Notes under the pieces: generated by a model | Database searches by the model: none | Told to the model about the DNA's origin: nothing | Seen by the model: the letters and a program-made list of their open reading frames with translations, nothing else | NCBI GenBank assembly: GCA_017477695.1 | Contig: JAFUUR010000071.1 | Location: forward strand, 1 to 45,573 | DNA length: 45,573 nucleotides | Direction of reading: 5' to 3' | Origin: Oscillospiraceae bacterium | GTDB lineage: Bacteria; Bacillota; Clostridia; Oscillospirales; Oscillospiraceae | Shown: positions 7,060 through 43,924 of the stretch, piece by piece | Layout of the letters: each line of letters begins with the position of its first letter | Position numbering within the stretch: the stretch's first letter is position 1 | Translations under genes and position numbers: made by a program

Positions 7060-7129
7060 TCCGCCGGGCGCGCGCTGCATATACTGCAGTGCGGCCATCA
7101 ACAACAGAAGCAGTTCCTGCTGTGTGCGT

Positions 7130-7340: not shown

Positions 7341-7352
7341 CGTTTCTGCCGC

Positions 7353-17270: not shown

Positions 17271-17352
17271 AGAGACCTCCGGGTCCGCCGTGCGTGAAGT
17301 CCGTCACGGCGGTGATGCGTTGCGGAAAGGCGCGCGATCGGCGCGCGGACAC

Positions 17353-19233: not shown

Positions 19234-19264
19234 AGATCAGAGATCCCTTCGTGCGGGACTGTGC

Positions 19265-21157
19265 TTATCCGCGGTACACGGTCTGATTGAGCGCGTACTG
19301 CGCCCAGGTCATCCGGCGGCAGAGCTCCTGCTGCGCGGCATCAAGGGCGGTGACGAGCCGCCCGTCGACGAGATAGAAGCCCGTCGTGTTGATGACGGGG
19401 ACCTCGTCGCGCACCTCGCGCGTGAGCTGCATGAAGGCGCTGCCCTCCCAGCCGAGCTTGTCGAATACGACGGAAAGCAGGAAGCAGGGGCTCACGGTCG
19501 GGCCCTCGCCGATGAAATCATCGCCGAGGAGCGCCTTCGCCGCGTCGTTGGCCCAGATGAGGTAGCGAGTGGAATAGTAATTGAGACAGCCTGTCAGGGT
19601 GCTGAGATCCACGTCGATCCCCGCCTCGCCGAAGAAGTCGCCCCCCTCGGTAAAATGCGGCTTGTGGTCGCCGTAGGCGAGCAGGACGACGGGCTCGTCC
19701 AGGCCGCGCAGCTCGTCGAGCGCAGCGGCAAGCCTCTCCTGGGTGTCGACTACGCCGCGCAGATAGTCGTTGACCTGGTTGCGCACCTTGTCCGAACAGC
19801 CCTCGGCCTGCCAGTAGAGATAGCCGTCGTAGGCGTCCGCGGGGTGCGGGCCATGGCCCTGCGTGGTGACCGTGAAGGAGAAGACGTTTTCTCCCCGCGC
19901 CGCGTGCTCGCGATACTGCGCGAGGACGTCCGGGAAGACGAAGCGGTCGGACATCCATTCGTTTTCCAGCGTGCTCACGTCGGCCTCGTAGTGGTTCTCA
20001 CGGTACCAGAATTCCTCGAAGCCGAGGTGGCCGTTGACGCCGATGCGCGAATAGAAGGTGCCGAAGTGCGGGTGGCTGGCCAGAGCGGTGTAGCCCTGGC
20101 GGCGCAGATACCGCACGTAGGACTCCACGTCGCGGTGGTACTCGAAGAGCTCGGAGCTGCCCGTGAGGAAGCAGCGCTCCGTGTTGATCGTGCCGCCGCC
20201 CATCACGTTCGTGACGAGGGTGCCGGTGTAGCTCTCCTCCTCCAGCGCGTGATAGAGATCGTAGGTATGCTCGTCCAGCCCCTCGAGCCCGAGCAGGGAC
20301 ATGTCGCAGAACGACTCCAACTGAAAGACCAGCAGGTCGACCCGCCGGTCGTCCGGGATCGCGGCATCCGTATAGGCGGAGAGGATCTCCGCGGCCTCTT
20401 TTTTATCGTAACCGTCCGGCGGATAGCCGGCGCTCGTCACGATGCTGTGCAGGAACGGATAGACGGAGCCCTTCGAGACGAAGGTGATCTCCGTCCAGGC
20501 TTTGGCGAAGATATGCTCGTCCGAGACGGCCTTCTGCTCATAGAACTCATGGTCGGAGTAAACGGTGAACCAGAGCCCCGCGGCCGCGGCGAGCGCGCAT
20601 ACGCAGGCCGTGACGCGCAGCGGCTTTGCCGGCCGGCCGCGCACGAGCAGCGCCAGCAGCAGGAGCCCCAGGGGCAGCGCGGCCAGCGCAATCAGCACGC
20701 GCACGTTCGGCGTTAGGTCGTATTTGCCTGCGACGCTGAGCCCGGCCCGGATCGAGCCGATATCGGAAAACATCAGCGGCTCCGAGCGAAAGCGCTGCTT
20801 GTAGAAGCTGCCGATCGAGGGCAGGACGACGAAAAGCCAACCGAGCAGATACGAGAGCCATTGCCGCCCCGTGAGCCCGTAGCAGAACAGCAGGAGCAGC
20901 AGCACCGGGATCCAGTTGAGATAGAAGATCAGCGGATGCCGGAAGTAATCGAAGAAAAGCTCGATATCCATCATGCCGAGGCCGAGGAACAGACTCAGCA
21001 CGCACAAGACGACCGAGGCCGCCAGCAGCGCCGCCAGGCTCCAGATATGGAACAGAGCACGCTGCGTGCGGGACGTCAGATCCCGCGCGTACCGGGCGCG
21101 GAGAAAGGCAACGGGACCGATAGGGGCAGATATGGTTTTGGCAGAAGAATTCTTCAT
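19265..21157 (-). CDS. LtaS/sulfatase-family membrane (phospho)transferase, paralog C
   Basis: Same architecture as A. Motifs are VFQLESFCD, GGTINTERCF and YGDHKPH. It is closest to paralog D. Confidence 0.85.
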   Translation of the reverse strand: MKNSSAKTISAPIGPVAFLRARYARDLTSRTQRALFHIWSLAALLAASVVLCVLSLFLGLGMMDIELFFDYFRHPLIFYLNWIPVLLLLLFCYGLTGRQWLSYLLGWLFVVLPSIGSFYKQRFRSEPLMFSDIGSIRAGLSVAGKYDLTPNVRVLIALAALPLGLLLLALLVRGRPAKPLRVTACVCALAAAAGLWFTVYSDHEFYEQKAVSDEHIFAKAWTEITFVSKGSVYPFLHSIVTSAGYPPDGYDKKEAAEILSAYTDAAIPDDRRVDLLVFQLESFCDMSLLGLEGLDEHTYDLYHALEEESYTGTLVTNVMGGGTINTERCFLTGSSELFEYHRDVESYVRYLRRQGYTALASHPHFGTFYSRIGVNGHLGFEEFWYRENHYEADVSTLENEWMSDRFVFPDVLAQYREHAARGENVFSFTVTTQGHGPHPADAYDGYLYWQAEGCSDKVRNQVNDYLRGVVDTQERLAAALDELRGLDEPVVLLAYGDHKPHFTEGGDFFGEAGIDVDLSTLTGCLNYYSTRYLIWANDAAKALLGDDFIGEGPTVSPCFLLSVVFDKLGWEGSAFMQLTREVRDEVPVINTTGFYLVDGRLVTALDAAQQELCRRMTWAQYALNQTVYRG

Positions 21158-21169
21158 AGACGATACGGG

Positions 21170-23038
21170 CTACTCGCTGTACACGATGCGGTTGAGGTAA
21201 TATTGTACCCACTCCATACGTCGGTAAAGCTCCTGTTGTTCGGGCGCAAGCGAGGTGAAAAGCTGCCCGTTGATGATATAGAAGCCGTTGGTGTTGATAA
21301 CGGGGATCGCATCGCGGGTCTCACGGGAGAACTGCATGTAAGCGCTGCCGTCCCAACCCATCTTGTCGAACACGAGCGACAGCAGGAAGCAGGGACTCAC
21401 GGCTGGGCCATCGCCGATGAAGTCATCGCAGAGCTGCGCCTTTGCAGCGTCGTTTGCCCAGATGAGATAGCGGGTGGAGTAATAGTTGAGACAGCCTTCC
21501 AGCGTGCTTACGTCGATATTGATCCCGGCCTCGGAGTAAAAGTCACCGCCGTTGGTAAAACGGGGCATATGATCACCGTAGACGATGACGACGACAGGCG
21601 TCTCACTGTCACGGAGCGCATCAATGGTTCGGGTGAGGTGTTCCTGCGTGTCGACTACGCCGTCCAAATAGTTGTTCACCTGATTGCGAACGGCCTTGGT
21701 GCAGCCCTCGCCGTCCCAATGCAGGACTTCACCGTCATACCTGTCCGCATAGTAAGAGCCGTGGCCCTGTGTGGTGACGGTAAAGGAGAAGACGTTCTCA
21801 CCCTGCGCCACATGCTCCTCATACTGCTCCAGCACGTCTGGGAAGACGAAGCGGTCGGACATCCATTGATTGATGAGGGTGTTTACATCAGCCTCATAGT
21901 GGTTCTCTTTGTACCAGAATTCGTCGAAGCCAAGATGCTCATTGACACCGATGCGCGAATAGAAGGTACCGACGTGCGGGTGACTGGCGAGCGTGGTATA
22001 GCCCTGCCTGTTGAAGTAGCGGACGTAGGATTCCACCGCATGCGAGTAATCGAACATCTGGAAACTGCCGGTCAGAAAGGTACGTTCCGTGTTGATCGTG
22101 CCGCCGCCCATCACGTTATCGACGAGGATCCCGGTATAGCTCTCCTCCTCCAGCGCGTGATAGAGCTCGTACGTTTCCTCATTCAGCCCCGCAAGTCCGA
22201 TCCTGGACATGTCGCAGAAGGATTCCAACTGAAAGACCATGAGGTTCACTCTGCGTTCCTCGGGGATATCGGCATCGGTATAAGCCGAGTAGATCGCTTC
22301 CGCTTCGGACGCACTGTAATTCGCCGGAGGATATCCGGCGCTTGTCGCGATGCTGTGCAGGAAAGGATAGACGGAGCCCTTTGAGATAAAGGTCAGCTCC
22401 GACCACATGAGCGCGACCATGTGATCCTCGTTGACAGCCGTATACTTGTAGAAATAGTCATCCCTGTAGATGCTGAACCACAGGGCGACCGCGGCGATGA
22501 CCGGGGCGCAAACAGAGACCAGACGGCTGCGCCGGGAGGGGCGCCCTTTTACCAACATGAAAAGCAGCAAGATCCCGACGGGCAGTGCCGCCACCGCGAG
22601 GATGATCCGCACGTTCGGGGTGAGATCATACTTGCTTGCAACGCTGAGCCCGGCCTTGATCGAACTCATGTCGGAAAATGTCAGGGGCTCCGCCCGGAAG
22701 CGCTGCTTGTAAAAGCTACCGATCGAGGGGAGGACGACAAGGATCCAGGTGAGAAGATAGGTGATCCACTTCCGCCCCGTGAGCCCGTAGCAGAACAGCG
22801 TGAGAAGCAGCACGGGAACCCAGTTGAGCAGGAAAATCAGCGGATGCCGGAAATAGTCGTAAAAGACCTCGACACTGATCATTCCAAGCCCCAGCATGAG
22901 GCTCAGGACACATATCACGAGCGAGCTCGCCAGCAAGGCGGCGGCGTTCCAAACCCAGAAGAGGTTCTTCTGGGCGCGGGACGTCAACTCGTCAGGGCGG
23001 CGCGCCGTGATGAAATTTCGCTTCCTGGCGGTCTCCAT
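21170..23038 (-). CDS. LtaS/sulfatase-family membrane (phospho)transferase, paralog D (lower GC)
   Basis: Same architecture as A. Motifs are VFQLESFCD, GGTINTERTF and YGDHMPR. I prefer the ATG at 23038 (METARK...), 2 nt after the glyQS TGA. The track start at 23044 is a TTG inside the glyQS stop region. Confidence 0.85.
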   Translation of the reverse strand: METARKRNFITARRPDELTSRAQKNLFWVWNAAALLASSLVICVLSLMLGLGMISVEVFYDYFRHPLIFLLNWVPVLLLTLFCYGLTGRKWITYLLTWILVVLPSIGSFYKQRFRAEPLTFSDMSSIKAGLSVASKYDLTPNVRIILAVAALPVGILLLFMLVKGRPSRRSRLVSVCAPVIAAVALWFSIYRDDYFYKYTAVNEDHMVALMWSELTFISKGSVYPFLHSIATSAGYPPANYSASEAEAIYSAYTDADIPEERRVNLMVFQLESFCDMSRIGLAGLNEETYELYHALEEESYTGILVDNVMGGGTINTERTFLTGSFQMFDYSHAVESYVRYFNRQGYTTLASHPHVGTFYSRIGVNEHLGFDEFWYKENHYEADVNTLINQWMSDRFVFPDVLEQYEEHVAQGENVFSFTVTTQGHGSYYADRYDGEVLHWDGEGCTKAVRNQVNNYLDGVVDTQEHLTRTIDALRDSETPVVVIVYGDHMPRFTNGGDFYSEAGINIDVSTLEGCLNYYSTRYLIWANDAAKAQLCDDFIGDGPAVSPCFLLSLVFDKMGWDGSAYMQFSRETRDAIPVINTNGFYIINGQLFTSLAPEQQELYRRMEWVQYYLNRIVYSE

Positions 23039-23040
23039 GA

Positions 23041-24477
23041 TCAAAAGCGGATGCGCTCAGCGATGTAGCTCTTGACCTCGCTGATCGGGATGCGGACCTG
23101 CTGCATACTGTCGCGCTCGCGCACGGTGACGCAGTGGTCTGCCTCGTCGGTCTCGGTGCCGACGGTGTTGAAGTCGAAGGTCACGCAGAACGGCGTGCCG
23201 ATCTCGTCCTCACGGCGGTAGCGCTTGCCGATGGAGCCGGTCTCGTCGTAATCGCACATGAAGTCCTTGCTGAGCTCGTTGTAAAGCTCCTGCGCCGGCC
23301 CGGTCAGGATCTCCTTGCGGCTGAGCGGGAGGATGGCGCACTTGAAGGGCGCGAGCGCGGGATGCAGATGCAGCACGGTGCGCACATCGTCGTTGCCCTT
23401 CTTGTCCTGGCCGACGACCTCCTCGTCGTACGCGTCGCACAGGACGGAGAGCACGGTGCGCTCGACGCCGAGCGAGGGCTCGATGACGTAGGGGATATAG
23501 TGTTCGTTCTTCTCCTGGTCGTAATAGGTCAGATCCTGGCCGGAGACCTCCTGATGGCGGCTCAGGTCGTAATTGGTGCGGTCGGCCACGCCCCAGAGCT
23601 CGCCCCAACCGAAGGGGAACAGGTACTCAAAGTTCGTGGTGGCCTTGGAGTAGAAGGCCAGCTTGTCCTTCTCGTGGTCGCGCAGGCGGAGGTTTTCCTC
23701 CTTCAGGCCGATGGACAGCAGAAAGTCCCGGCAGAAGCCGCGCCAATAGTCGAACCACTCCAGATCGGTGTCCGGCTCACAGAAGAACTCCAGCTCCATC
23801 TGCTCGAACTCACGCACGCGGAAGATGAAGTTGCCCGGGGTGATCTCGTTGCGGAAGCTCTTGCCGATCTGCGCGATGCCGAAGGGCAGCTTGCGGCGCG
23901 TGGTGCGCTGGACGTTGACGAAGTTCGTGAAGATGCCCTGCGCGGTCTCGGGGCGCAGATAGACGGTGTTCTTCGCGTCCTCGGTGACGCCCTGGAAGGT
24001 CTTGAACATGAGGTTGAACTGACGGATATCGGTAAAATTGTGCTTGCCGCAGCTCGGGCAGGGGATGTTGTGCTCCTCGACGAAGTCCTTCATCTCCGCC
24101 TGGGAATAGGCGTCGATGGGGCGGGGAAGCTCAAAGCCCGCGTCCTTGCACCAGTCCTCGATGATCTTGTCGGCGCGGAAGCGCTCGTGGCACTCGCGGC
24201 AGTCCATCAGCGGATCGGAGAAGCCGCCGAGGTGGCCGGAGGCGACCCAGGTCTGCGGGTTCATGAGGATGGCGGCGTCGAGACCGACGTTGTAGCGGTT
24301 CTCCTGCACGAACTTCTTCCACCAGGCGCGCTTGACGTTGTTCTTCAGCTCAACGCCGAGGGGACCGTAGTCCCAGGTGTTGGCGAGGCCGCCGTAGATC
24401 TCGGAGCCGGCAAAGATGTAGCCGCGGTTCTTGCACAGGGCGACGATCTTGTCCATGGTTTTTTCTGTGTTTTTCAT
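23041..24477 (-). CDS. glyQS: Glycine--tRNA ligase (single-chain class II GlyQS type)
   Basis: [31 protein letters not shown] plus class II core and anticodon-binding regions. The start is either 24483 or 24477 (ATGCAAATG). GGAAAGGAA spacing favours 24477. Confidence 0.92.
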
Positions 24478-30872: not shown

Positions 30873-30890
30873 AGCGCATAAAAATTCAAC
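30873..30890 (+). promoter_or_regulatory. Second candidate ARG box overlapping the transcription start region
   Basis: In AGCGCATAAAAATTCAAC the right half and the A/T core match the consensus. The left half matches at 3 of 5 positions. Confidence 0.35.
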
Positions 30891-30902
30891 GGAGGCATTC
30901 CC

Positions 30903-32117
<1,215 letters not shown>

Positions 32118-32132
32118 AGAAGGAAGATCGCT

Positions 32133-32161
32133 ATCCTGCACGGCAGACCGCCGTGCAGGAT
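32133..32161 (+). other. Perfect 12-bp intercistronic hairpin between argG and argH (no U-tract)
   Basis: ATCCTGCACGGC-agacc-GCCGTGCAGGAT, followed by attgcgc. Confidence 0.7.
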
Positions 32162-32185
32162 ATTGCGCAGACTGAGGGGAACGAC

Positions 32186-33565
32186 ATGCCAAAACTGTGG
32201 ACCGGCGTCACCGCCGGCATCACCGATCCCATCGCGGATGATTTCAATTCCTCCATCCGCTTCGACAGCCGCATGTACCGGCAGGACATCGAGGGCAGCA
32301 TGGCCCACGCAGCCATGCTCGCGGCGCGCGGCATCATCAGCGACAGCGAGCGCGACGCGCTGACCGGCGGCCTTGCGGGGATCCTGGAGGATCTGGAGTC
32401 CGGCGCGCTGCAGCCGGATATGCGGTGCGAGGACATCCACATGTTCGTCGAGCAGGAGCTGACGGGCCGCATCGGGGAGACGGGCAAGAAGCTGCACACG
32501 GCCAGGAGCCGCAACGACCAGGTCGCCCTGGATCTGCGGATGTACCTGCGCGGCGAGTGCGCGGAGATCTGCGCGCTGACGAAAGCGCTCGTCACGGCGC
32601 TTACCGACGTGGCAGAGCGGCACAAGGCCAGCATCATGCCGGGCTATACGCACCTGCAGCGCGCGCAGCCGGTCAGCTTCGGGCACTATCTGATGGCTTA
32701 CGCCATGATGCTCCTGCGTGATCTGGACCGGCTCGCGGACTGCAGAAAGCGCATGAACGTCTCGCCGATCGGCTGCTGCGCCCTGGCTGGCACCACCTAC
32801 GATACGGACAGGCGCATGGAGGCGTCGCTGCTCGGCTTTGACGAGATCGCCCGCAACAGCATGGACGGCGTCTCCGACCGGGACTTCGCCGTGGAGCTGC
32901 TGAGCGCGCTGTCGATCGAGATGATGCATCTCTCGCGCCTCGCTGAGGAGCTGATCCTCTGGGCGAGCTGGGAGTTCAAGTTCATCGAGCTCTCGGACGC
33001 GTACACCACGGGCTCGTCCATCATGCCGCAGAAGCGCAACGCCGACATGGCGGAGCTCGTGCGCGGCAAGACCGGCCGCGTCTACGGAGACCTTCTGGGC
33101 CTCCTGACCACGCTCAAGGGCCTGCCGCTGGCCTACAACAAGGACATGCAGGAGGACAAGGAGGGCGTGTTCGACGCGTGCTACACGGTCAAGGCCTGCC
33201 TGCGCGTCTTCGCGCCGATGATCGCCAGCATGCGGGTGCGCACGGACAACATGCTCCGCGCGGCGCAGACCGGCTTTATAAACGCCACGGATCTGGCGGA
33301 TTATCTCGTGCGCAAGGGGCTGCCGTTTCGCAGCGCCTACAAGCTCTCCGGGCAGATCGTCGCCCGCTGCATGGCCGACGGGCAGGTGCTGGAGAGTCTG
33401 CCGCTTGAGGTCTACCGGGAGTACAGCCCGCTCTTCGGCGAGGATCTGTACGCTGCGATCGACCTCAAGGCCTGTGTGGAAAAACGCATCTCCGAGGGAG
33501 GCACCTCGGAGAGCTCCGTGGAAAAACAGATCGCCTGGGTAAGGATGGTGCTTGAACATGACTAA
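32186..33565 (+). CDS. argH: Argininosuccinate lyase
   Basis: It starts at MPKLWTG after GAGGGGA. The signature is GSSIMPQKRNAD. Confidence 0.93.
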   Translation: MPKLWTGVTAGITDPIADDFNSSIRFDSRMYRQDIEGSMAHAAMLAARGIISDSERDALTGGLAGILEDLESGALQPDMRCEDIHMFVEQELTGRIGETGKKLHTARSRNDQVALDLRMYLRGECAEICALTKALVTALTDVAERHKASIMPGYTHLQRAQPVSFGHYLMAYAMMLLRDLDRLADCRKRMNVSPIGCCALAGTTYDTDRRMEASLLGFDEIARNSMDGVSDRDFAVELLSALSIEMMHLSRLAEELILWASWEFKFIELSDAYTTGSSIMPQKRNADMAELVRGKTGRVYGDLLGLLTTLKGLPLAYNKDMQEDKEGVFDACYTVKACLRVFAPMIASMRVRTDNMLRAAQTGFINATDLADYLVRKGLPFRSAYKLSGQIVARCMADGQVLESLPLEVYREYSPLFGEDLYAAIDLKACVEKRISEGGTSESSVEKQIAWVRMVLEHD

Positions 33566-34472
33566 GATCTTTATCGACGGCAGCGCCGGGACGACCGGCC
33601 TGCGCATATACGAACGGCTCGCCGGGCGGGAGGGACTCGAGCTCATCCGGATCCCAGAGGAGCTGCGCAAGGATCCGAAGGCCCGCGAGGAGGCGATCAA
33701 CGCCGCCGATATCGCCTTCTTCTGCCTGCCGGACGCGGCGGCTGTCGAGGCGGCGGCACTGGTGCACGGCGACACCGCCGTGATCGACACCTCCACCGCG
33801 CACCGCACCGCGCAGGGCTGGGACTACGGCTTCGCCGAGCTGCACGGCCTGCGCGAGAAGATCGCGGCGAGCAAGCGCGTTGCAAACCCAGGCTGCCACG
33901 CGAGCGGCTTCATCTCTTTGGTGGAGCCTCTCGTGCACGAGGGGCTGATCGCAGCGGACACGGCGCTTACCTGCTTCTCTGTCACCGGCTACTCCGGCGG
34001 CGGCAAGGGCATGATCGCCGAGTACGAGGGCGAGGGGAGAGCGGCGGAGCTCGATTCCCCGCGGCAGTACGGCCTCACGCAGCAGCACAAGCACCTCAAG
34101 GAGATGGTGAAGCTCTGCGCGCTGGAGACGGCGCCGGTCTTTTGCCCGATCGTGGCGGACTACTACAGCGGCATGGCGGTGACCGTGCCCCTGTTCCGCA
34201 AGGACCTGCGAGGCACCGCGGAGGATATCGCGGCGCTGTACAAGGAGCGCTACCACAGCCCCATCGTGCACTTTGAGCCGTACGGCGACGGCATGATCGC
34301 GGGCAACACCCTCTCCGGGCGGGACGACATGGAGATCACGATCGCCGGCAACGACGAGCGCATCCTGCTCATCTCCCGCTTCGACAATCTCGGCAAGGGC
34401 GCGTCCGGTGCCGCCATCCAAAACATGAATATTCTTCTGGGCCTGGACGAGACCGTTGGCCTGGTGATTTGA
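33558..34472 (+). CDS. argC: N-acetyl-gamma-glutamyl-phosphate reductase (short, about 305-aa form)
   Basis: MTKIFIDGSAGTTGLRI and the catalytic-Cys motif NPGCHASG. The start is either the ATG at 33558 or the TTG at 33552. It overlaps the end of argH. Confidence 0.88.
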   Translation: MTKIFIDGSAGTTGLRIYERLAGREGLELIRIPEELRKDPKAREEAINAADIAFFCLPDAAAVEAAALVHGDTAVIDTSTAHRTAQGWDYGFAELHGLREKIAASKRVANPGCHASGFISLVEPLVHEGLIAADTALTCFSVTGYSGGGKGMIAEYEGEGRAAELDSPRQYGLTQQHKHLKEMVKLCALETAPVFCPIVADYYSGMAVTVPLFRKDLRGTAEDIAALYKERYHSPIVHFEPYGDGMIAGNTLSGRDDMEITIAGNDERILLISRFDNLGKGASGAAIQNMNILLGLDETVGLVI

Positions 34473-34491
34473 TCCTACAGGAGGAAACAAC

Positions 34492-35706
34492 ATGAAGATC
34501 GTATCCGGCGGCGTGTGCGCCGCCAAGGGCTTCCAGGCCGCGGGCATCCACTGCGGCATCCGCGCAAACCACAGCAAGCGCGACCTTGCGTTGATCGTCA
34601 GCAGCGTCCCGGCGAGCGCGGCCGCCGTCTACACCACCAACCTGGTCAAGGGCGCGCCTCTGACCGTCACGAAGCGGCACATCAGCGACGGCGTCGCCCA
34701 GGCGGTGATCTGCAACAGCGGCAACGCCAACACCTGCAACGCAAACGGCATCGAGATCGCCGAGGAGATGAGCGCCCTCACGGCGCAGGCCCTCGGCATC
34801 CGCGCGCAGGACGTGGTCGTCGCCTCTACGGGCGTCATCGGCCAGCCGCTGAACATCGCCCCCATCGCGGCCGGGATCGCGCCGCTGAAGGCGGCCCTGT
34901 CGGACGACGGGAGCGCGGACGCCTGCGAGGCCATCATGACCACGGACGTGAAGAAAAAGGAGATCGCCGTGGAGTTCACCGTCGGCGGCAAGACCTGCCA
35001 TCTCGGCGGCATCGCCAAGGGCAGCGGCATGATCCACCCCAACATGGCCACCATGCTCGTCTTCCTCACGACCGACGCCGCCATCGCCCCGGCCATGCTG
35101 ACGAAGGCCCTGCAGGGAGACATCCGGAAGACCTTCAACATGATCAGCGTCGACGGCGACACCTCCACGAACGACATGGTCGCCATCCTCGCCAACGGCC
35201 TCGCCGGCAACGACGAGATCACCGCTGAGGGGGAGGACTTCAGCGCCTTCATGCAGGCGCTCAACACCGTGAACGTCTACCTCTGCCGCGGCATCGCGGC
35301 CGACGGCGAGGGCGCCACCAAGCTGCTCGAGTGCGCGGTGAGCGGGGCGAAGGACGAGGCCGCGGCCAAAACGGTCGCCAAGAGCGTGGTCTGCTCCAAT
35401 CTGACCAAGGCCGCCATGTTCGGCGAGGATGCCAACTGGGGACGCGTGCTCTGCGCCATCGGCTACAGCGGCGCAGACGTGGACGTGGACAAGGTGGGCG
35501 TGAGCTTCCGCTCGGCCGCCGGGAGCGTCGAGGTCTGCCGCGACGGCGCGGGCGTGCCGTTTTCCGAGAAGGTCGCGGCACAGGTGCTGCACGAGAGCGA
35601 GATCGATATCCTCGTCACGCTCGGCGACGGGGATGGCGCCGCCACCGCCTGGGGCTGCGATCTGAGCTACGAATACGTGCGCATCAACGGCGACTACCGC
35701 ACCTGA
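34492..35706 (+). CDS. argJ: Bifunctional ornithine acetyltransferase / N-acetylglutamate synthase
   Basis: It has the autoprocessing site ...HPNMATMLVFLTTDA and is 404 aa. Confidence 0.93.
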   Translation: MKIVSGGVCAAKGFQAAGIHCGIRANHSKRDLALIVSSVPASAAAVYTTNLVKGAPLTVTKRHISDGVAQAVICNSGNANTCNANGIEIAEEMSALTAQALGIRAQDVVVASTGVIGQPLNIAPIAAGIAPLKAALSDDGSADACEAIMTTDVKKKEIAVEFTVGGKTCHLGGIAKGSGMIHPNMATMLVFLTTDAAIAPAMLTKALQGDIRKTFNMISVDGDTSTNDMVAILANGLAGNDEITAEGEDFSAFMQALNTVNVYLCRGIAADGEGATKLLECAVSGAKDEAAAKTVAKSVVCSNLTKAAMFGEDANWGRVLCAIGYSGADVDVDKVGVSFRSAAGSVEVCRDGAGVPFSEKVAAQVLHESEIDILVTLGDGDGAATAWGCDLSYEYVRINGDYRT

Positions 35707-35718
35707 GAGGGCCGCGAG

Positions 35719-36603
35719 ATGGACGCTTTACAGTTTTCAAACGCCCAGCGGGCGCAGGTGCTCACGGAGGCGCTGCCCTATATCCGGCGGTATAACGGGC
35801 GGATCGTAGTGGTCAAATACGGCGGCAACGCCATGGTCAGCGATCAGCTCAGACAGCAGGTGATGGAGGATATCGTGTTGCTGTGGCTGGTCGGCGTGCG
35901 CGTCGTGCTGGTGCACGGCGGCGGGCCGGAGATCAGCGATCTGATGACCCGTCTCGGCAAGAAGCCGGAATTCGTGGACGGCCTGCGCGTCACCGACAAG
36001 GAGACGGTGGACATCGTGCAGATGGTGCTCGCAGGCAAGGTCAACAAGACGCTCGTGAACCTCCTCGAGGTCAAGGGCGGCAAGGCGATGGGCATCTCCG
36101 GCATGGACGGGCGATTGATCCGCGCGAAGATGAAGGACCCGTCTCTCGGCTACGTCGGCAGCATCACGGGCGTGGATATCCAGCCGGTCATGGACCTGCT
36201 GGACAAGGGCTACATCCCGGTCATTTCCACGATCGGCTGCGACGCCGAGGGCAACACCTACAACATCAACGGCGACACCGCCGCGGCCTATATCGCCGGG
36301 GCGCTGGACGCCGAGAGGCTCATTATGATGACGGATATCGCCGGGGTCCTGCGCGACAAGGACGATCCGTCCACCCTCATCCCGCGCCTGACGATCGCCC
36401 AGGCGGTGGAGTTGTTCGAGCAGAACGTGATCGCCGGCGGCATGATCCCCAAGGTGGAGTGCTGCATCGACGCAATCCACCGCGGCGTCGACAGTGCGAT
36501 CATCATGGACGGACGGGTGCCGCATTCCATTCTGATGGAGATCCTCACCGACGAGGGCGCGGGCACCATGGTAGTAAAAGGGGAGGAGAACGAGTACCTA
36601 TGA
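35719..36603 (+). CDS. argB: Acetylglutamate kinase
   Basis: VVKYGGNAM and GGGPEI motifs of the amino-acid kinase fold. Confidence 0.93.
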   Translation: MDALQFSNAQRAQVLTEALPYIRRYNGRIVVVKYGGNAMVSDQLRQQVMEDIVLLWLVGVRVVLVHGGGPEISDLMTRLGKKPEFVDGLRVTDKETVDIVQMVLAGKVNKTLVNLLEVKGGKAMGISGMDGRLIRAKMKDPSLGYVGSITGVDIQPVMDLLDKGYIPVISTIGCDAEGNTYNINGDTAAAYIAGALDAERLIMMTDIAGVLRDKDDPSTLIPRLTIAQAVELFEQNVIAGGMIPKVECCIDAIHRGVDSAIIMDGRVPHSILMEILTDEGAGTMVVKGEENEYL

Positions 36604-37760
36604 ATATCAAAGAGATCGATCAGAAATACGTCGCCAATACCTACGCGCGCTTCCCGGTACAGATCGTATCCGGCAAGGGCTCGATCGTCTGCGACGAGAC
36701 GGGCAAGGCCTATATCGACATGGGCAGCGGCATCGGCGTGACGGCCTTCGGCATCGCGGACGACGCCTGGAAGGCGGCCGTGATCGCCCAGTTGGACAAG
36801 CTGCAGCACATGTCGAACCTGTACTACACCGAGCCCTGTGCCAAGCTCGCCCAGCTCCTGTGCGAGAGGACGGGGATGAAGAAGGTCTTCTTCTGCAACT
36901 CCGGCGCGGAGGCTAACGAGTGCGCCATCAAGGCGGCGCGCAAATACGCCTGCGAGAAAAAGGGCGCGGAGTATTACACTATCGTCACCCTCGTAAACAG
37001 CTTCCACGGGCGCACCGTCACGACGCTGGCCGCCACCGGCCAGGAGCACTACCACGAGCTGTTCCAGCCGCTCACGCCCGGCTTCGTGCACGCGCCGGCG
37101 AACGACATCGAAGCGGTAAAGGCCGCGGCGCTCGCGAACAAGACCGCCGCCGTGATGATCGAATGCATCCAGGGCGAGGGCGGCGTGATCGCGCTCGACG
37201 AGAGCTTTGTGAAGGAGCTCGCCGCGTTCTGCGCGCAGGAGGATATCCTGCTGGTGGTGGACGAGGTGCAGACCGGAAACGGCCGCTCCGGCAAGCTCTA
37301 CGCCTATATGAATTACGGCGTGCAGCCGGATATCGTCTCCACGGCCAAGGGCCTGGGCGGCGGCCTGCCTCTGGGAGCGACGCTCTTCGGCGAGAAGACC
37401 CAGTCCGTTCTCGGCAGCGGCGATCACGGCTCCACCTTCGGCGGCAACCCCGTGAGCTGCGCGGGCGCGCTGAGTATCCTCGGCCGCATCGACGACGCGC
37501 TGCTTGCGCAGGTGAAGGAGAAGAGCGCCTACGTTTTCAGCGAGCTGACCGGCGCGGAGGGCGTGGAGTCCGTCAGCGGCATGGGGCTGATGATCGGCAT
37601 CAAGCCCGTCAAGCCCGCCGCCGAGGTGGTGGACCTGTGCATGCAAAACGGCGTCCTGTGTCTGACGGCGAAGGATAAGGTGCGGCTGCTGCCGGCGCTC
37701 AACATCCCCATGGAGACGCTGCAGCAGGCGATCGCCGTGATCAAGGCGGCCTGCAAGTGA
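36600..37760 (+). CDS. argD: Acetylornithine aminotransferase
   Basis: Its ATG overlaps the argB TGA (ATGA). It is a class III aminotransferase with the PLP lysine in [12 protein letters not shown]. The track ORF start at 35883 is an out-of-context extension through argB. Confidence 0.92.
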
Positions 37761-37770
37761 GGAGGACGAA

Positions 37771-38754
37771 ATGGAGCTAAAAGGCAGGAGCTTTCTCAAG
37801 CTGCTCGATTACAGCCCCGAGGAGATCGACGCGCTGCTGCAGCTTGCGGCTGAGCTGAAGGCCAAAAAGAAGGCGGGCGTCCCGCACAGGCTGCACGAGG
37901 GCAAGAACGTGGCGCTGATCTTCGAAAAGACCAGCACCCGCACGCGCTGCAGCTTCGAGGTCGCCGCGGCGGATCTGGGCATGCACGCGGTCTATCTCGA
38001 CCCAAGCGCTTCCCAGATCGGCAAGAAGGAGAGCATCGCGGACACCGCCCGCGTCCTCGGCCGCATGTTCGACGGTATCGAATACCGCGGCTACGGACAG
38101 GCGCGCGTGGAGGCGCTGGCGCAGTACGCGGGCGTCCCCGTCTGGAACGGACTGACCAATGAGTTCCACCCCACACAGATCCTCGCGGACTTTCTCACCA
38201 TCCGGGAGCATTTCGGCGGGCTCAAGGGCAAAAAACTCGTCTATATGGGCGATGCGCGCTACAACATGGGCAATTCTCTCATGGTCGGCTGTGCCAAGAT
38301 GGGCCTGCAGTTCCTCGCCTGCGCGCCGGAAAAGTATTTTCCGGACGCCGCGCTGATCGAAACGTGCAGGGAGATCGCCGCCGGGACCGGCGCGGCGCTC
38401 CGCTTTGAGACCGACCCCTTCAAGGCCGTGCAGGGCGCGGACGTGATCTATACGGATATCTGGGTCTCCATGGGCGAGCCGGAGTCCGTCTGGGAGGAGC
38501 GCATCCACGACCTGCTGCCCTACCAGGTGAACGCCGCGCTGCTCGCGGCGGCCGGGCCGCAGTGCCGCTTCATGCACTGCCTGCCCGCCTATCACGATCT
38601 TGAGACCGAGAACGGCCTCGCGATCTATGAAAAATTCGGCCTGGAGTCCATGGAGGTCACGCACGAGGTGTTCGAGGGGCCGCAGTCCATCGTCTTCGAC
38701 GAGGCGGAGAACCGCATGCACACCATCAAGGCCGTCATGGCCGCGACGCTGTGA
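37771..38754 (+). CDS. argF: Ornithine carbamoyltransferase
   Basis: Motifs STRTR, HPTQ and HCLP. Confidence 0.93.
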
Positions 38755-38759
38755 GCGCC

Positions 38760-39830
38760 ATGGAAAAGGCATATCTCGTTCTGGGAAACGGCAGGGTCTT
38801 CGAGGGCGAGCGCATCGGCGCCGCGGGAGACAGCATCGGAGAGTTGGTCTTCACCACCGGCATGGTGGGCTATCTCGAGACCCTGACCGATCCCAGCTAC
38901 GCCGGACAGATCATCCTGCAGACCTTTCCCCTCATTGGCAATTACGGGGTCATCTCCCCGGACTTTGAGGGGAACTGCTTTGCCAGGGGCTACGTGGTGC
39001 GGGAGCTGTGCGAGGCGCCGTCGAACTTCCGCAGCGAGTACGCGCTCGATCGCTTTCTGAAGGAGCGGGGCATCCCCGGCATCTGCGGCGTCGATACCCG
39101 CGCGGTCACGCGGCTGCTGCGCGAAGAGGGCGTGATGAACGCCTGCATATGCGCCGAGATCCCGGCGGATCTCGCACCGGTGCGCGCCTACGCGGTGAAG
39201 GACGCGGTGCGCACGGTCAGCACGCGCGAGACGCGCGACTACCCCGCGCAGGGAGAGGAGCGCTTTCACGTCGCGCTGATCGACTACGGCGCGAAGCGCA
39301 ACATCATCCGCTGTCTGAACCGGCGCGGCTGCCGGGTCACGGTCGTGCCGCACGACACCGCGGCGGAGACCGTCCTGGCCATGGCACCGGACGGCGTCAT
39401 GCTCTCCAACGGCCCGGGCGATCCACAGGAGAACGTATATGAGATCGAGCAGATCCGAAAGCTCATGGGGAAGGTGCCCATCTTCGGTATCTGCCTGGGA
39501 CATCAGCTCACGGCCCTCGCCATGGGCGGCGAGACCGTGAAGCTCAAATACGGCCACCGCGGCGCGAACCAGCCCGTGCGCCTGTGCGGCGGCTCGCGCA
39601 CCTACATCAGCAGCCAGAACCACGGCTACGCCGTGGTCAGCGAGAGCATGGAGGGGATCGCGCGCCTCAGCTACGTCAACGCAAACGATCTGAGCTGCGA
39701 GGGGCTCGAATACCCGGAGCAGCGCTGCTTTACCGTACAGTTCCATCCCGAGGCCTGTTCCGGGCCGCGGGATACCGAGTTTTTGCTCGATCGCTTTATC
39801 GCCATGATGGGAGGGGACGGGCGTGCCTAA
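38760..39830 (+). CDS. carA: Carbamoyl-phosphate synthase small (glutaminase) subunit
   Basis: MEKAYLVLGNGRVFEG, and a triad region IFGICLGHQL...HG. An alternative GTG start at 38751 overlaps the argF stop. Confidence 0.9.
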   Translation: MEKAYLVLGNGRVFEGERIGAAGDSIGELVFTTGMVGYLETLTDPSYAGQIILQTFPLIGNYGVISPDFEGNCFARGYVVRELCEAPSNFRSEYALDRFLKERGIPGICGVDTRAVTRLLREEGVMNACICAEIPADLAPVRAYAVKDAVRTVSTRETRDYPAQGEERFHVALIDYGAKRNIIRCLNRRGCRVTVVPHDTAAETVLAMAPDGVMLSNGPGDPQENVYEIEQIRKLMGKVPIFGICLGHQLTALAMGGETVKLKYGHRGANQPVRLCGGSRTYISSQNHGYAVVSESMEGIARLSYVNANDLSCEGLEYPEQRCFTVQFHPEACSGPRDTEFLLDRFIAMMGGDGRA

Positions 39831-42800
39831 AGACAAGAGCATCCGGAAGGTCCTGGTCATCGGCTCGGGCCCGATCGTCATCGGGCAGGCGGCGGAGTTC
39901 GACTACGCGGGCGCGCAGGCCTGCCGCGTGCTGCGGCAGGAGGGCGTCGAGACCGTGCTGGTCAATTCCAACCCCGCCACTATCATGACCGACAAGAACC
40001 TGGCAGACGCCATCTACCTCGAGCCGCTCACTGCCGAGACGGTGCGGCGCATCATCGCCAAGGAGCGGCCGGACGGACTGCTGGCCGGCCTCGGCGGGCA
40101 GACGGGCCTGACCATCGCCATGCAGCTCAGCCGCGACGGCACGCTGGAGAAATACGGCGTGCGCCTGCTCGGGTCGGATATCGGCGCGATCGAGAAGGCC
40201 GAGGACCGCGAACTGTTCCGCGACACACTGTGCGCCATGGGGCAGCCGGTCGTCCCCTCGGACACGGCGAACGACCTGGACACGGCGCTCGCCGTCGCCG
40301 CGCGCATCGGCTACCCCGTAATCGTCCGCCCGGCCTTCACGCTCGGCGGCACCGGCGGCGGGATCGCCGAGACGGAGGAGGAGCTGCGCGTCATCGCGAA
40401 GATGGGCCTGGATCTCTCGCCCATCACGCAGATCCTCGTGGAAAGGTGCATCTCCGGCTGGAAGGAGATTGAATTTGAGACCATGCGCGACGGCGCGGGC
40501 AACGTCATCGCCGTCTGCTCCATGGAGAACTTCGACCCCGTTGGCGTGCACACCGGGGACTCGATCGTAGTTGCCCCGGCGCTCACGCTCGCGGACAAGG
40601 AATACCAGATGCTGCGCTCTGCCGCGCTGAATATCATTACCGAGATCGGCATCGTCGGCGGCTGCAACTGCCAGTTCGCCCTCGATCCGGAGAGCTTCGA
40701 GTACGCGGTCATCGAGGTGAACCCCCGCGTGTCGCGCTCCTCTGCGCTGGCCTCCAAAGCCACGGGCTACCCCATCGCCAAGATCAGCACGCGCATCGCC
40801 CTCGGCTACACCCTCGATGAGATCAAAAACGACATCACCGGCAAGACCTGCGCCTGCTTCGAGCCGACGCTGGACTACGTGGTGGTCAAGGTCCCCAAAT
40901 GGCCCTTCGATAAATTCGCCGGCTCCAGCCGGAAGCTCGGCACGCAGATGAAAGCGACGGGCGAGGTCATGGCCATTGCGCCGAGCTTTGAGATGGCGCT
41001 GATGAAGGCCGTACGCGGCGCGGAGATCTCGCTCGACACGCTCAACGCCCCGCCGCTCTCAGCGGCGCCCGTGACCGAGCGCCTGCACGAGCAGAACGAC
41101 AGGCGCCTGTTCACCGTGTTCGAGGCGCTGAAGGCGGGCGTCAGCGTGGAGGAGATCCACGCCACCACGCGCATCGACCCCTGGTTCCTGTATAAGCTCC
41201 AAAGCCTCGCGCAGTTCGAGACCCGCATCGTCCGGGACGGCCTCTCAGAGGCGGACTACCGCCGCGCCAAGAAGCTCGGCTATACGGACGAGGCGCTCTG
41301 CCGCCTTTGCGGCGCGGAGAGCGTGCCCGGCCTGCCCATGTGTTACAAGATGGTGGACACCTGCGGCGCGGAGTTCGACGCCGAGACGCCTTACTTCTAT
41401 TCTTCCTTCGACGAGGAGTGCGAGGCACGCGCTTTCGCGCGCAGCGGCAAGCCCGTCGTCATGGTGCTCGGCTCCGGCCCGATCCGCATCGGTCAGGGCA
41501 TCGAATTCGATTACAGCAGCGTGCACTGCGTGTGGACGCTGCGCGAGATGGGCTACGACGTTGTCATCGTGAACAACAACCCGGAGACCGTCTCCACCGA
41601 CTACGACACCGCGGACCGGCTCTACTTCGAGCCGCTCTGCCGGGAGGACGTCTGGAACATCATCCAGGTGGAGAAGCCCGTCGGCGTGGTGGTGGCCTTC
41701 GGTGGGCAGACGGCCATCAAGCTCACGCAGTTTCTCGACGGGAAGGGCATCCCCATCCTGGGTACCTCCGCCGATAGCATCGACGTCGCCGAGGACCGCG
41801 CCCGCTTCGACGCCCTGCTGGAGACCTTCGGTATCCGCCGCCCGCGCGGGCACGGCGTGAACACCCTCGAGGAGGCACTGCAGGCGGCCGAAGAGCTGGG
41901 CTACCCCGTGCTGCTGCGCCCCTCCTACGTGATCGGCGGGCAGAACATGTGCATCTCCCGCGACGCGGAGACGACGGAGCGCTACATGCGCGGCATCCTC
42001 GCCGGGGGGATCGAGAATCCCGTCCTGGTGGACAAGTACATGCCCGGCACGGAGCTGGAGGTGGACGTGATCTCCGACGGAGAGGACGTGCTGATCCCCG
42101 GCATCATGGAGCACATCGAGCGGGCCGGCGTCCACAGCGGGGACTCCATCGCCGTCTACCCGCCGTATAATCTCAGCGACAAATTCCTGCGCCGCATCTG
42201 CGAGGTGTCGGAGCAGCTCGCGCTGGCCCTGGGAACGAAGGGGCTCGTGAACATCCAGTACCTCATCTACGCGGACGAGCTGTACGTGATCGAGGTCAAC
42301 CCCCGCGCTTCGCGCACCGTGCCCTACATCAGCAAGGTGACGAACGTGCCGATGGTGGATCTCGCCTCGCGGATCATGCTGGGCGCGAAGCTGCGCGAGC
42401 TCGGCTACGGCACGGGCCTGTACCGCACGCCGCCCTACTACGCGGTCAAGGTGCCGGTCTTCTCCTTCGAGAAGCTCTCGGACGCCAACTCCATCCTCGG
42501 CCCGGAGATGAAGTCCACCGGCGAGGTGCTCGGCATCGGCAAGACCCTGGCGGAGGCCATGTTCAAGGGCCTGACCGCCGCGGGCTTCACCGTGCCGAGT
42601 CTGCACGGCAGGACGGACGCGGGCGTCCTCCTCAGCGTGGAGACCGGGGACTACCAGGAGATCATCTCCCTCGCGCGCCGGTTTTACGAGCTGGGTCTGA
42701 AGCTCTACGCCACCAGCGGCACGGCGGGCGCCATCGCCGCGCTGGGGATCCCGGTCGAGGCCGTGGCCAACGCCACCGAGAGCGGGCGCATCCACGAGCT

Positions 42801-43857
42801 GATGGAGCAGGGAGAGCTGTGCTATATCGTCTACACCGGGGCCGTCAAGGACGCCACGATGGGCGATTATATCGCCCTGCACCGCCGGGCAATGCAGCTC
42901 GGCATCCCGTGCCTGACCTCGCTCGATACCGCCAACGCCCTCGCGGACATCATTGCGAGCCGCTTCAACCAGAGCAACACCGAGCTCGTGGACATCAACG
43001 CCATGCGCACGCAGCGGCAGAAGATCCGCTTCACCAAGATGCAGGACTGCGGCAACGACTATATCTTCATCGAGAACTTCGACGGCGGCATTACCTGCCC
43101 GGAGTCCCTGTGCGTCAGCCTCTGCGCGCCGCACTACGGCATCGGCGGGGACGGCATCGTGCTCATTGAGCGCTCCGAGGTCGCGGACGTGCGCATGCGC
43201 AGCTTCAACCGCGACGGCAGCGAGGGGCTCATGGCGGGCAACAACATCCGCTGCGTGGCGAAGTACATGTACGATAACGGCTACGTGCGCGGCGAGAGCC
43301 TGCGGGTAGAGACCCGCAGCGGCGTCAAGAGCCTGCAGCTTTTCTGCCGGGACGGGAAGGTCAGCTCCGTCGCGGTGGACATGGGCAGGGCCGAGCTGGA
43401 CGCGGCGCGCGTGCCGGTGCTGACAGAGCAGCCGCGCATGGTCGACAGTCCCGTCACCATCGGCGGGGAGGACTGGCGCGTTACCTGCGTCTCGGTCGGC
43501 AACCCCCACTGCGTCGTCTTCTGCGACGCCATCGACAGTCTCGACCTCGAGCGCATCGGCCCGGCGTTCGAATATGCGGAGATGTTCCCGGAGCGCGTCA
43601 ACGCGGAGTTCGTACGCGTCGTCAACCGCAACAACCTGCGCATGCGCGTCTGGGAGCGCGGCAGCGGCGAGACGCTGGCCTGCGGCACAGGCGCCTGCGC
43701 CGCGGTGATCGCCGCGGTGGAGAACGGCTGCTGCGACAAGGGCAGCGATGTCAAGGTGACGCTGCTCGGCGGCGAGCTGACCGTGAACTATACATACGAG
43801 CGCGTGCTGCTCACCGGCGGCGCGACCATGGTATACGAGGGGAGCTTCGAATACTGA
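39823..43857 (+). CDS. carB: Carbamoyl-phosphate synthase large subunit fused in frame to a C-terminal DapF-like (diaminopimelate epimerase fold) domain
   Basis: The GTG start at 39823 follows GGGAGGGGA and overlaps carA by 8 nt. Residues 1 to about 1067 form a complete CarB. Residues 1068-1344 (nt 43024-43854) match the DapF fold from IRFTKMQDCGNDY to the C-terminus. There is no stop, SD or linker at the junction. Confidence 0.9.
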   Translation: MPKDKSIRKVLVIGSGPIVIGQAAEFDYAGAQACRVLRQEGVETVLVNSNPATIMTDKNLADAIYLEPLTAETVRRIIAKERPDGLLAGLGGQTGLTIAMQLSRDGTLEKYGVRLLGSDIGAIEKAEDRELFRDTLCAMGQPVVPSDTANDLDTALAVAARIGYPVIVRPAFTLGGTGGGIAETEEELRVIAKMGLDLSPITQILVERCISGWKEIEFETMRDGAGNVIAVCSMENFDPVGVHTGDSIVVAPALTLADKEYQMLRSAALNIITEIGIVGGCNCQFALDPESFEYAVIEVNPRVSRSSALASKATGYPIAKISTRIALGYTLDEIKNDITGKTCACFEPTLDYVVVKVPKWPFDKFAGSSRKLGTQMKATGEVMAIAPSFEMALMKAVRGAEISLDTLNAPPLSAAPVTERLHEQNDRRLFTVFEALKAGVSVEEIHATTRIDPWFLYKLQSLAQFETRIVRDGLSEADYRRAKKLGYTDEALCRLCGAESVPGLPMCYKMVDTCGAEFDAETPYFYSSFDEECEARAFARSGKPVVMVLGSGPIRIGQGIEFDYSSVHCVWTLREMGYDVVIVNNNPETVSTDYDTADRLYFEPLCREDVWNIIQVEKPVGVVVAFGGQTAIKLTQFLDGKGIPILGTSADSIDVAEDRARFDALLETFGIRRPRGHGVNTLEEALQAAEELGYPVLLRPSYVIGGQNMCISRDAETTERYMRGILAGGIENPVLVDKYMPGTELEVDVISDGEDVLIPGIMEHIERAGVHSGDSIAVYPPYNLSDKFLRRICEVSEQLALALGTKGLVNIQYLIYADELYVIEVNPRASRTVPYISKVTNVPMVDLASRIMLGAKLRELGYGTGLYRTPPYYAVKVPVFSFEKLSDANSILGPEMKSTGEVLGIGKTLAEAMFKGLTAAGFTVPSLHGRTDAGVLLSVETGDYQEIISLARRFYELGLKLYATSGTAGAIAALGIPVEAVANATESGRIHELMEQGELCYIVYTGAVKDATMGDYIALHRRAMQLGIPCLTSLDTANALADIIASRFNQSNTELVDINAMRTQRQKIRFTKMQDCGNDYIFIENFDGGITCPESLCVSLCAPHYGIGGDGIVLIERSEVADVRMRSFNRDGSEGLMAGNNIRCVAKYMYDNGYVRGESLRVETRSGVKSLQLFCRDGKVSSVAVDMGRAELDAARVPVLTEQPRMVDSPVTIGGEDWRVTCVSVGNPHCVVFCDAIDSLDLERIGPAFEYAEMFPERVNAEFVRVVNRNNLRMRVWERGSGETLACGTGACAAVIAAVENGCCDKGSDVKVTLLGGELTVNYTYERVLLTGGATMVYEGSFEY

Positions 43858-43867
43858 AAAAGCGTCC

Positions 43868-43903
43868 AAAAAGCCCTGACGGGGCATCCCGTCAGGGCTT
43901 TTT
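43868..43903. terminator. Bidirectional terminator between the arg operon and the convergent isomerase gene
   Basis: AAAAA-GCCCTGACGGG-gcat-CCCGTCAGGGC-TTTTT. Confidence 0.88.
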
Positions 43904-43924
43904 GACGTTTATGATCCGGTGCGT

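Follow-up and report, generated by a model that had tools for sequence, protein, structure and literature searches.

We examined a 45,573-nucleotide stretch of DNA from an Oscillospiraceae bacterium (GenBank assembly GCA_017477695.1, contig JAFUUR010000071.1, positions 1 to 45,573; hereafter the window), in which carB, encoding the large subunit of carbamoyl-phosphate synthetase (CPSase), runs on into a domain resembling DapF, the diaminopimelate (DAP) epimerase. The fused gene is the last of a complete argG-argH-argC-argJ-argB-argD-argF-carA-carB operon. In the list of open reading frames (ORFs) of the window it is a single frame on the + strand (39823..43857) of 1344 residues, with a GTG start that shares 8 nt with the stop of carA.

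CarB proper occupies residues 1–1047 (39823..42963, + strand) and comprises two ATP-grasp halves, an oligomerisation domain and an MGS-like allosteric domain. This part matches the CarB equivalog model NF003671 with 1424 bits (cut-off 599) and TIGR01369 with 1388 bits (cut-off 1027), and the Pfam domains found are CPSase_L_D1/D2 (twice), CPSase_L_D3 (once) and MGS (once); the full-length equivalog match and the adjoining carA partner identify it as CarB. The gap between the two hidden Markov model matches is filled by a C-terminal tail of CarB (residues 1048–1067; 42964..43023, + strand), the ASRFNQSNTELVDINAMRTQRQK region, which forms the tether and whose motif, NTELVD(I/L)N.MR, is kept alike in fusions that retain the first catalytic Cys of DapF (hereafter Cys-type) and in those that have lost it (Cys-less). 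The remainder, residues 1068–1344 (43024..43854, + strand), is a full two-lobed DAP-epimerase fold, recognised by TIGR00652, by phmmer against the PDB and by Foldseek. TIGR00652, the DapF model (cut-off 115), scores 263 bits over residues 1068–1342 and 268 bits when the domain is scanned alone, and Pfam DAP_epimerase (PF01678) matches the window protein twice, with 182.6 bits. By sequence and by fold the domain belongs to the DapF family, passing the curated cut-offs with a Foldseek probability of 1.00.

The preliminary description of this stretch, made from the letters alone, had reported a frame running continuously from CarB into DapF, and this is what we find: one ORF, matched by both equivalog models, with no stop codon or frameshift when positions 42990–43030 are read through. 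No Shine-Dalgarno-like motif is seen there by eye, and a consensus scan at the CarB/DapF junction found no promoter-like or terminator-like site. The CarB::DapF fusion is real and seamless.

It is also not peculiar to one contig. When one genome per GTDB species was scanned, 123 relatives came to light; the best 80, described here, are from metagenome-assembled genomes (MAGs) of uncultured Oscillospiraceae, Ruminococcaceae or Clostridiales of the rumen and gut, at 71–90% identity. Full-length homologues were taken from the DNA loci, and 65 independent full-length loci in MAG and metagenome assemblies carry an uninterrupted frame of about 1342–1359 residues; extra full-length fusions lie on metagenome contigs with 38–64% GC. 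Because 65 independent assemblies share this frame, it cannot be a local error of sequencing or assembly. A pair of separate genes, or a dead, decaying tail, might still be argued from a homologue (P0023, locus L001) in which the domain is called as a separate 284-aa gene, and from some metagenome contigs (L101 and L112) that appear chimeric around the conserved GNPHCV codons. The split in P0023, however, is caused by an N-gap in the scaffold, and across the 65 full-length loci no truncated DapF-like domain was seen. In the same loci the ratio of non-synonymous to synonymous substitution (dN/dS, Nei–Gojobori) is 0.117 in the DapF-like part, against 0.075 in CarB, with mean pairwise identities of 70.5% and 80%, respectively. 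Set against the uninterrupted frames, a dN/dS near 0.12 and the lack of truncations, an artefact or pseudogene has a negligible chance of being the explanation.

DapF is a two-base Cys/Cys epimerase, in which the equivalent of Cys73 acts on LL-DAP. In the window protein the site of this first catalytic Cys (Cys73 in Haemophilus influenzae, Cys75 in Anabaena) is occupied by Ala1138, encoded by GCG at 43234..43236 (+ strand). The best phmmer match among PDB chains, Bacillus anthracis DapF (2otn, E = 4e-69), aligns end to end, and in this alignment, as in those to the Anabaena (9mro) and Arabidopsis (3ejx) enzymes, MAGNNIRC lies over xCGNGxRC without a gap. The first Cys has thus been replaced by Ala, as the preliminary description held, and has not been displaced by an indel, the alternative it had raised; the motifs it listed (GNDY, FNRDGSE, GNPH, NAEF, ERG and LACGTG) are all present. 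Three residues on from Ala1138, Asn1141 (AAC, 43243..43245, + strand) stands in place of the Gly/Ala of CGN(G/A) in the proximal half-pocket, a clade-specific change. The second catalytic Cys (Cys217 equivalent) is kept as Cys1287 (TGC, 43681..43683, + strand), as the alignments show, within ERGSGETLACGTG.

These features recur among the relatives, and AGNN...ACGTG is read in every locus from the genome scan. Across 131 Cys-less fused domains of the Ala/Gly type, the first-Cys position is Ala in 109 and Gly in 22, and the second Cys is kept in 128. Position 76 is Asn, Ser or Cys in 90 of the 131 but Gly or Ala in 84 of 85 Cys-type fused domains and in all 114 stand-alone domains. The window domain therefore lacks the pair of Cys residues that makes DapF an enzyme, and with Ala or Gly as the replacement it also lacks the functional Thr or Ser that acts as second base in one-base members of the superfamily. 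We searched for a compensating catalytic residue and rejected the idea, as no clade-specific conserved Cys, His, Lys or Tyr occurs in the Cys-less clade; the Cys preceding GNDY is not clade-specific, being found in Cys-type fusions and stand-alone DapF too.

The ligand pocket itself is intact. In Anabaena DapF the proximal carboxylate of DAP is held by the backbone of Gly76, Asn77, Gly225 and Thr226 and by the Thr226 hydroxyl, Asn13 touches the proximal amine, and the distal amino-acid end is held by Asn66, Glu215, Arg216, Asn164 and Asn197 (Anabaena numbering; PMC12039745). Every DAP-contact residue, including Asn11, is present in the window protein, and the equivalents of N64, G74, N75, N157, N190, E208, R209, G218 and T219 are at least 98% conserved in the 131 Cys-less domains. 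Asn11 is replaced by Asp in 30 of the 131 and in none of 199 Cys-type or stand-alone domains; GNDY accordingly reads GDDY in the human-gut Cys-less lineages L102–L105, L119–L124, L129 and relatives. Clade-specific changes are thus confined to the proximal half-site (C73A/G, G76N/S/C and, in some lineages, N11D), with the distal site invariant.

Selection on the domain has persisted alongside these changes. Measured against the MGS domain next to it, the DapF domain has diverged by a factor of 0.88 within the Cys-less clade and of 1.03 among Cys-type fusions, so constraint was not relaxed after the Cys was lost. The window domain combines loss of an essential residue with continued purifying selection, the two marks of a pseudoenzyme, and a DapF-family domain that has become a pseudoenzyme on CarB is the probable description of it from its sequence. 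Many uncultured Clostridia of the gut and rumen have conserved this Cys-less fusion.

An AlphaFold2 model covering residues 925–1344 has a mean predicted local distance difference test score (pLDDT) of 89.4 and a predicted TM-score (pTM) of 0.67. The DapF-like part lies mostly at pLDDT 90–98 and most of the flanking domains at ~90 or more, with the 20-residue CarB tail at 60–67. What the model depicts is two confidently predicted domains on a flexible tether, with no confident packing of one against the other. In Foldseek, DapF structures are the top matches, with target-normalised TM-scores (TMt) of 0.84–0.91 (2otn, E = 6e-37; 9mro, TMt 0.91 and root mean square deviation 1.8 Å), followed by DcsC and, far behind, by PhzF and enzymes of the proline-racemase family. 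The aromatic residue at the dimer-contact position, Tyr268 in Escherichia coli DapF (PMC6061791), is kept as Tyr or Phe.

To place the window gene within its family, the 277-aa domain was searched with HMMER against 1.84 billion cluster representatives, giving 21,255 DapF-like matches. Among the closest is P0125, a 1349-aa CarB::DapF fusion in which the first Cys is kept (MCGNAIRC). A word-index search from the C-terminus of P0125 found 120 more fused proteins, including one from Ruminococcus bicirculans, and scanning metagenomes gave hundreds of matching stretches from Oscillospirales of the gut and rumen. Fusions of CarB to DapF occur widely in this order, many of them with both cysteines; named cultured hosts of the Cys-less type were not found among the matches listed.

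The catalytic positions were compared across an alignment of 371 DapF domains. In 231 fused domains, the residues at positions 73 and 217 are A,C in 108, C,C in 84, G,C in 20, S,S in five, S,C in four and S,A in three, with rarer states G,S and F,C (two each) and A,S, N,C and C,S (one each). Stand-alone domains with a complete N-terminus retain the first Cys in 114 of 114 cases and the second in 112 of 114. Of the 141 sequences without a fusion flag, 125 are C,C and 14 lack the first Cys; the latter are, as far as checked, apparently N-terminally truncated fusions, for example 284-aa calls starting inside the CarB tail. On a neighbour-joining tree, Fitch parsimony places Cys at the root and counts the first Cys as lost about 13 times; the window domain falls within one clade of 125 Cys-less sequences, the largest such clade in the sample, and some sister lineages have lost the second Cys also. 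The varied replacement residues in separate clades show that the first Cys has been lost repeatedly, and only from fused domains. The TELVD-to-GNDY spacing is 24 residues in Cys-type and Cys-less fusions, and this equal junction spacing suggests one fusion event older than the Cys losses; a single origin of the fusion is likely on these grounds.

The genomic neighbourhoods of the two types differ. In the window, argG, argH, argC, argJ, argB, argD and argF (30882..38754, + strand) are contiguous with carA and are identified by the Pfam domains Arginosuc_synth, Lyase_1/ASL_C2, Semialdhyde_dh, ArgJ, AA_kinase, Aminotran_3 and OTCace_N/OTCace. The gene carA (38751..39830, + strand; Pfam CPSase_sm_chain and GATase) encodes the CPSase small subunit, a glutamine amidotransferase. 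Downstream of the fusion, a bidirectional hairpin with T-runs (43866..43905; 18-bp stem with 10 GC pairs) was called on the − strand, and the + strand T-run after it is visible in the sequence; it is a strong predicted terminator of both the arg-carAB operon and the convergent downstream gene. No other DAP- or lysine-related gene was found in the 45-kb window, and a second DapF homologue was absent both from it and from 85 other loci (up to ~24 kb each).

Other Cys-less loci resemble the window: upstream there is nearly always argF-carA and usually further arg genes, and no dapL or other dap gene occurs within 10 kb or less on either side of roughly 115 of them. Nor was dapL seen downstream of the four independently Cys-less loci L178–L181. 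In Cys-type loci, by contrast, dapL directly follows the fusion in three of five lineages. It does so in L127 and L132/133 (TIGR03542, 495–528 bits; cut-off 365), and in R. bicirculans (L175), where the contig ends on the upstream side, the gene directly downstream encodes a 401-aa aminotransferase 60% identical to the L127 DapL. Upstream of L127 and L132/133 lies carA, with no arg genes in about 2 kb; L084/85 are alike over 9 kb. In the Cys-type locus L177 there is only carA upstream, and downstream a GntR regulator and pur genes but no dapL. The product of DapL, LL-DAP, is the substrate of DapF, so with dapL adjacent the Cys-type fused domain looks like the pathway epimerase, and Cys-type fusions are probably truly bifunctional proteins with working epimerases. 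On L177 (2057–7254), a 256-kb contig of long-read style, carA and carB::dapF are broken into many short gene calls ahead of the purine operon; this is probably indel error, not a real pseudogene.

We favour, with a probability of about 0.5, a reading in which the window domain is an epimerase-dead, ligand-binding pseudoenzyme module tethered flexibly to the CPSase allosteric domain. It is favoured because the domain remains as constrained as before the Cys was lost and its pocket is intact; the CarB part would be a functional enzyme of the arginine operon. In the most economical history, the stop codon of carB was lost, so that carB and a downstream dapF(-dapL) would have merged into a gene for a bifunctional protein; the ancestral CarB::DapF next to dapL would then, in the window lineage, have become the terminal gene of an arg operon, dedicated to arginine synthesis. 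DAP epimerisation by the fused domain could have become dispensable, being supplied elsewhere or bypassed, for example by Ddh, after which the LL-face base would have been lost and the domain kept as a pseudoenzyme binding a DAP-like ligand. Ligand-induced lobe closure and/or DapF-type dimerisation would modulate the allosteric domain or the oligomeric state of the CPSase. Gut bacteria commonly bypass DapF via Ddh, and an alternative, pyridoxal phosphate-dependent DapF2 exists (PMC9026213; GapMind 2026 preprint), the lobes of DapF close upon ligand binding (PMC12039745), and DapF dimerises tightly (PMC6061791).

The suggestion in the preliminary description that the domain is not a normal epimerase agrees with the survey, in which the first Cys is lost repeatedly in fused domains and never in complete stand-alone ones, and its ligand-binding pseudoenzyme fits the strong purifying selection and intact pocket. 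The idea that the fusion is itself a pseudoenzyme device did not hold up: many fusions are Cys/Cys and adjoin dapL, which makes fusion and Cys loss separate events. Which ligand the domain would bind, and how CPSase would respond, we can only infer, and the coupling to DAP or cell-wall status proposed in that description is hypothetical. Several points weigh against the favoured reading. Inactivity, DAP binding and the effect on CPSase are all predictions, the fused domain may still be the only DapF of its genome, and the intact pocket and kept second Cys would also be expected of a domain that still catalyses. A pTM of 0.67 without confident packing does not support a direct allosteric path structurally. 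The number of Cys losses comes from a rough tree of partial sequences, and the contrast between dapL and arg-operon linkage draws on only five Cys-type lineages, the independently Cys-less sample being small too.

A variant of the favoured reading, which we regard as unlikely, has the pocket retargeted from DAP to a metabolite of the arginine pathway, through which the domain would sense an end product or intermediate on behalf of the CPSase encoded in the arginine operon. The L-amino-acid end of DAP is found again in L-citrulline, L-arginine and L-ornithine, and its three-methylene chain in citrulline and arginine; as only the proximal half-site has changed, a ligand shift from DAP to one of these is conceivable.

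The most direct challenge to a pseudoenzyme is that the domain is still the epimerase of the cell, with Cys1287 as one base and water or another group delivering the opposite-face proton in an Ala cavity lined by Asn1141; low activity may be enough. Conservation of the substrate contacts and second Cys under strong purifying selection is what such a role would produce, and the Cys-type sisters, which look like pathway DapF with dapL adjacent, make it probable that the Cys-less domain descends from a pathway dapF, not from a spare copy. Cys/Thr variants of cofactor-independent racemases are active (PMC8142540), and loss of dapF does not impair the growth of E. coli in minimal medium, which means that a small flux can be enough (GapMind 2026 preprint). 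Ala, however, cannot transfer a proton, no new conserved Cys, His, Lys or Tyr has appeared in the clade, and the dapL linkage is gone in every Cys-less locus seen. The H. influenzae C73A variant is reportedly inactive as an epimerase. That the first Cys has given way to chemically unrelated residues (A, G, S, F and N), and that some lineages have lost the second as well (S,S and S,A), argues that catalysis is dispensable in the fusion family, and continued epimerisation is in our judgement improbable.

Retention of Cys1287 in an otherwise intact catalytic pocket could instead mark a one-base enzyme with a new reaction, one-base chemistry being the other possibility raised in the preliminary description. 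Its substrate, either similar to DAP or drawn from the arginine pathway, might be converted in one direction only or undergo a stereospecific elimination or dehydration. All clade-specific changes fall within the reacting, proximal half-site, 3-hydroxyproline dehydratase and PhzF, which are one-base or altered-base enzymes, are among the distant fold matches, and single-Cys mutants of related racemases catalyse eliminations (PMC8142540). Against this, no candidate natural substrate is known, no neighbouring gene points to a new pathway, the variability of positions 76 (N/A/S/C) and 73 (A/G) is unlike a newly fixed catalytic device, and the second Cys too has been lost in other Cys-less lineages; we consider this slightly less probable again than continued epimerisation. 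Alternatively, the domain might be purely structural, its folding and dimerisation stabilising the CPSase oligomer with no ligand sensed. In E. coli the CPSase allosteric domain forms one of the tetramer interfaces, and the window domain is tethered next to the allosteric domain, keeps the aromatic residue at its dimer-contact position and belongs to a family of tight dimers (PMC6061791). A scaffold role leaves unexplained why the buried N64, N157, N190, E208, R209 and T219 are near-invariant in 131 sequences, and so we hold it doubtful, about as much so as continued epimerisation. The ligand-binding pseudoenzyme module remains the reading we prefer.

Compared with canonical DapF (2otn, 9mro and H. 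influenzae 1gqz), the window domain shares the two-lobed fold, DAP contacts, second Cys and dimer-contact aromatic, with about 50% identity to close stand-alone DapF and 33–42% over structural alignments to solved DapFs. It differs in having Ala at the first Cys and Asn for Gly/Ala at position 76, and in being a C-terminal extension of CarB in an arg operon and not a free protein encoded with dap/lys genes. With the Cys/Cys fusions (R. bicirculans, GCA_037437605.1; P0125, GCA_050950425.1) it has architecture and junction spacing in common, NTELVD.N..R being followed 24 residues on by F.KM..(C)GNDY, but these fusions keep both catalytic Cys and lie outside arg operons.

Relatives with altered bases, in the same or analogous superfamilies, include trans-3-hydroxy-L-proline dehydratase (Cys/Thr), PhzF and the Cys/Thr aspartate/glutamate racemase EcL-DER, and DapF homologues with new substrates include the O-ureidoserine racemase DcsC (7vdy), a histidine racemase of Fusobacterium nucleatum and PddB. 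In these, loss or exchange of a base or remodelling of the pocket has given the fold new chemistry or specificity; those proteins, though, have a functional Thr or Glu for Cys, or keep both Cys with a changed distal pocket, whereas the window clade has an inert Ala/Gly replacement and an unchanged distal pocket. Identity of the window domain is about 15% to the PhzF/proline-racemase family (13–16%, TMt about 0.6–0.76) and 33% to DcsC.

A DapF fold that regulates another enzyme is known from E. coli, where DapF activates RppH (PDB 6d13; PMC4227774; PMC6061791). That DapF is still a free protein with full epimerase activity, and its target, which it regulates in trans, is an unrelated Nudix hydrolase. 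CPSase itself is a textbook case of allostery: in E. coli, the MGS-like domain of CarB responds to ornithine, inosine monophosphate and uridine monophosphate; an extra domain directly after this regulatory domain would, by natural analogy, suggest further small-molecule control. We know of no CPSase with an appended amino-acid-racemase fold as a sensor. If the favoured reading is correct, CPSase regulation would gain a new layer, in the form of a conserved, catalytically disabled amino-acid-binding domain beside the allosteric one, and the family would display a staged natural route from enzyme to pseudoenzyme, through stand-alone, fused active and fused dead forms, with pairs of Cys-type and Cys-less proteins as built-in experimental controls. 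Were arginine-pathway metabolites sensed, CPSase would be under a previously unrecognised form of feedback, derived from a dead epimerase and widespread among Clostridia of the gut and rumen.

The architecture is already present in public databases under generic names. Partial Cys-less copies appear as ‘diaminopimelate epimerase, partial’ at NCBI and as ‘carbamoyl-phosphate synthase large subunit’ at JGI, and because of the former name, metabolic reconstructions may credit a DapF step that the protein probably cannot perform. In the library of papers searched we found no description of the CarB-DapF fusion or its Cys-less form, and a search for diaminopimelate epimerase pseudoenzymes returned nothing relevant to the fusion.

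Several further loci bear on the distribution of the domain. P0124 (L082, 8001–9539; L083, 2621–4159) is a 512-aa ORF on four contigs that joins an ArgF N-domain (residues 1–128) and the last ~95 residues of CarB to a DapF-like domain with Gly at the first-Cys site and Asp at Asn11, as if the 3′ half of argF, all of carA and most of carB had been deleted. In L082 it is divergent from an mraZ-rsmH-penicillin-binding protein-mur ligase cluster. We considered it as a natural case of the domain kept without CarB and rejected this, since an intact 1353-aa fusion in L096 (3094–7152) carries a domain 99% identical to it, so that the deletion is recent or an artefact. Fusions of the Oscillospirales type are also labelled Collinsella aerofaciens, Bacteroidaceae, Escherichia coli, Phascolarctobacterium or Treponema sp. 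(L014, L015, L028, L038, P0316 and P0338); the most likely cause is mis-binning or mislabelling of MAG contigs.

Among stand-alone Cys/Cys DapFs the closest, P0390 (L086, 5001–5882), is 53% identical to the window domain. Its gene belongs to a conserved cluster for nitrogen metabolism (L086–L095, GC ~58%), which comprises Pyr_redox_2 and GXGXG-domain genes, possibly related to glutamate synthase, with glnA, an ANTAR regulator, dapF, pyrG, nadE and dapL, dapF overlapping pyrG. Two human-gut contigs, L101 (~6830–7385) and L112 (~2470–3009), match the fused gene of the L102 type at 98–100% identity as far as the GNPHCV codons, after which L101 continues into the 3′ half of a stand-alone-type dapF and then pyrG, and L112 into an inverted pyrG. 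They were rejected as proof of a second dapF-pyrG locus in the same genome: their partner sequences differ, so at least one join is between genomes and nothing is proved about gene content. Both look like assembly chimeras formed at a conserved k-mer.

Elsewhere in the window, four tandem paralogous ORFs of about 625–634 residues (15411–23044, − strand), each with a C-terminal Pfam Sulfatase domain, lie between genes for NAD synthase and a class II aminoacyl-tRNA synthetase and resemble LtaS/phosphoglycerol-transferase-like membrane enzymes.

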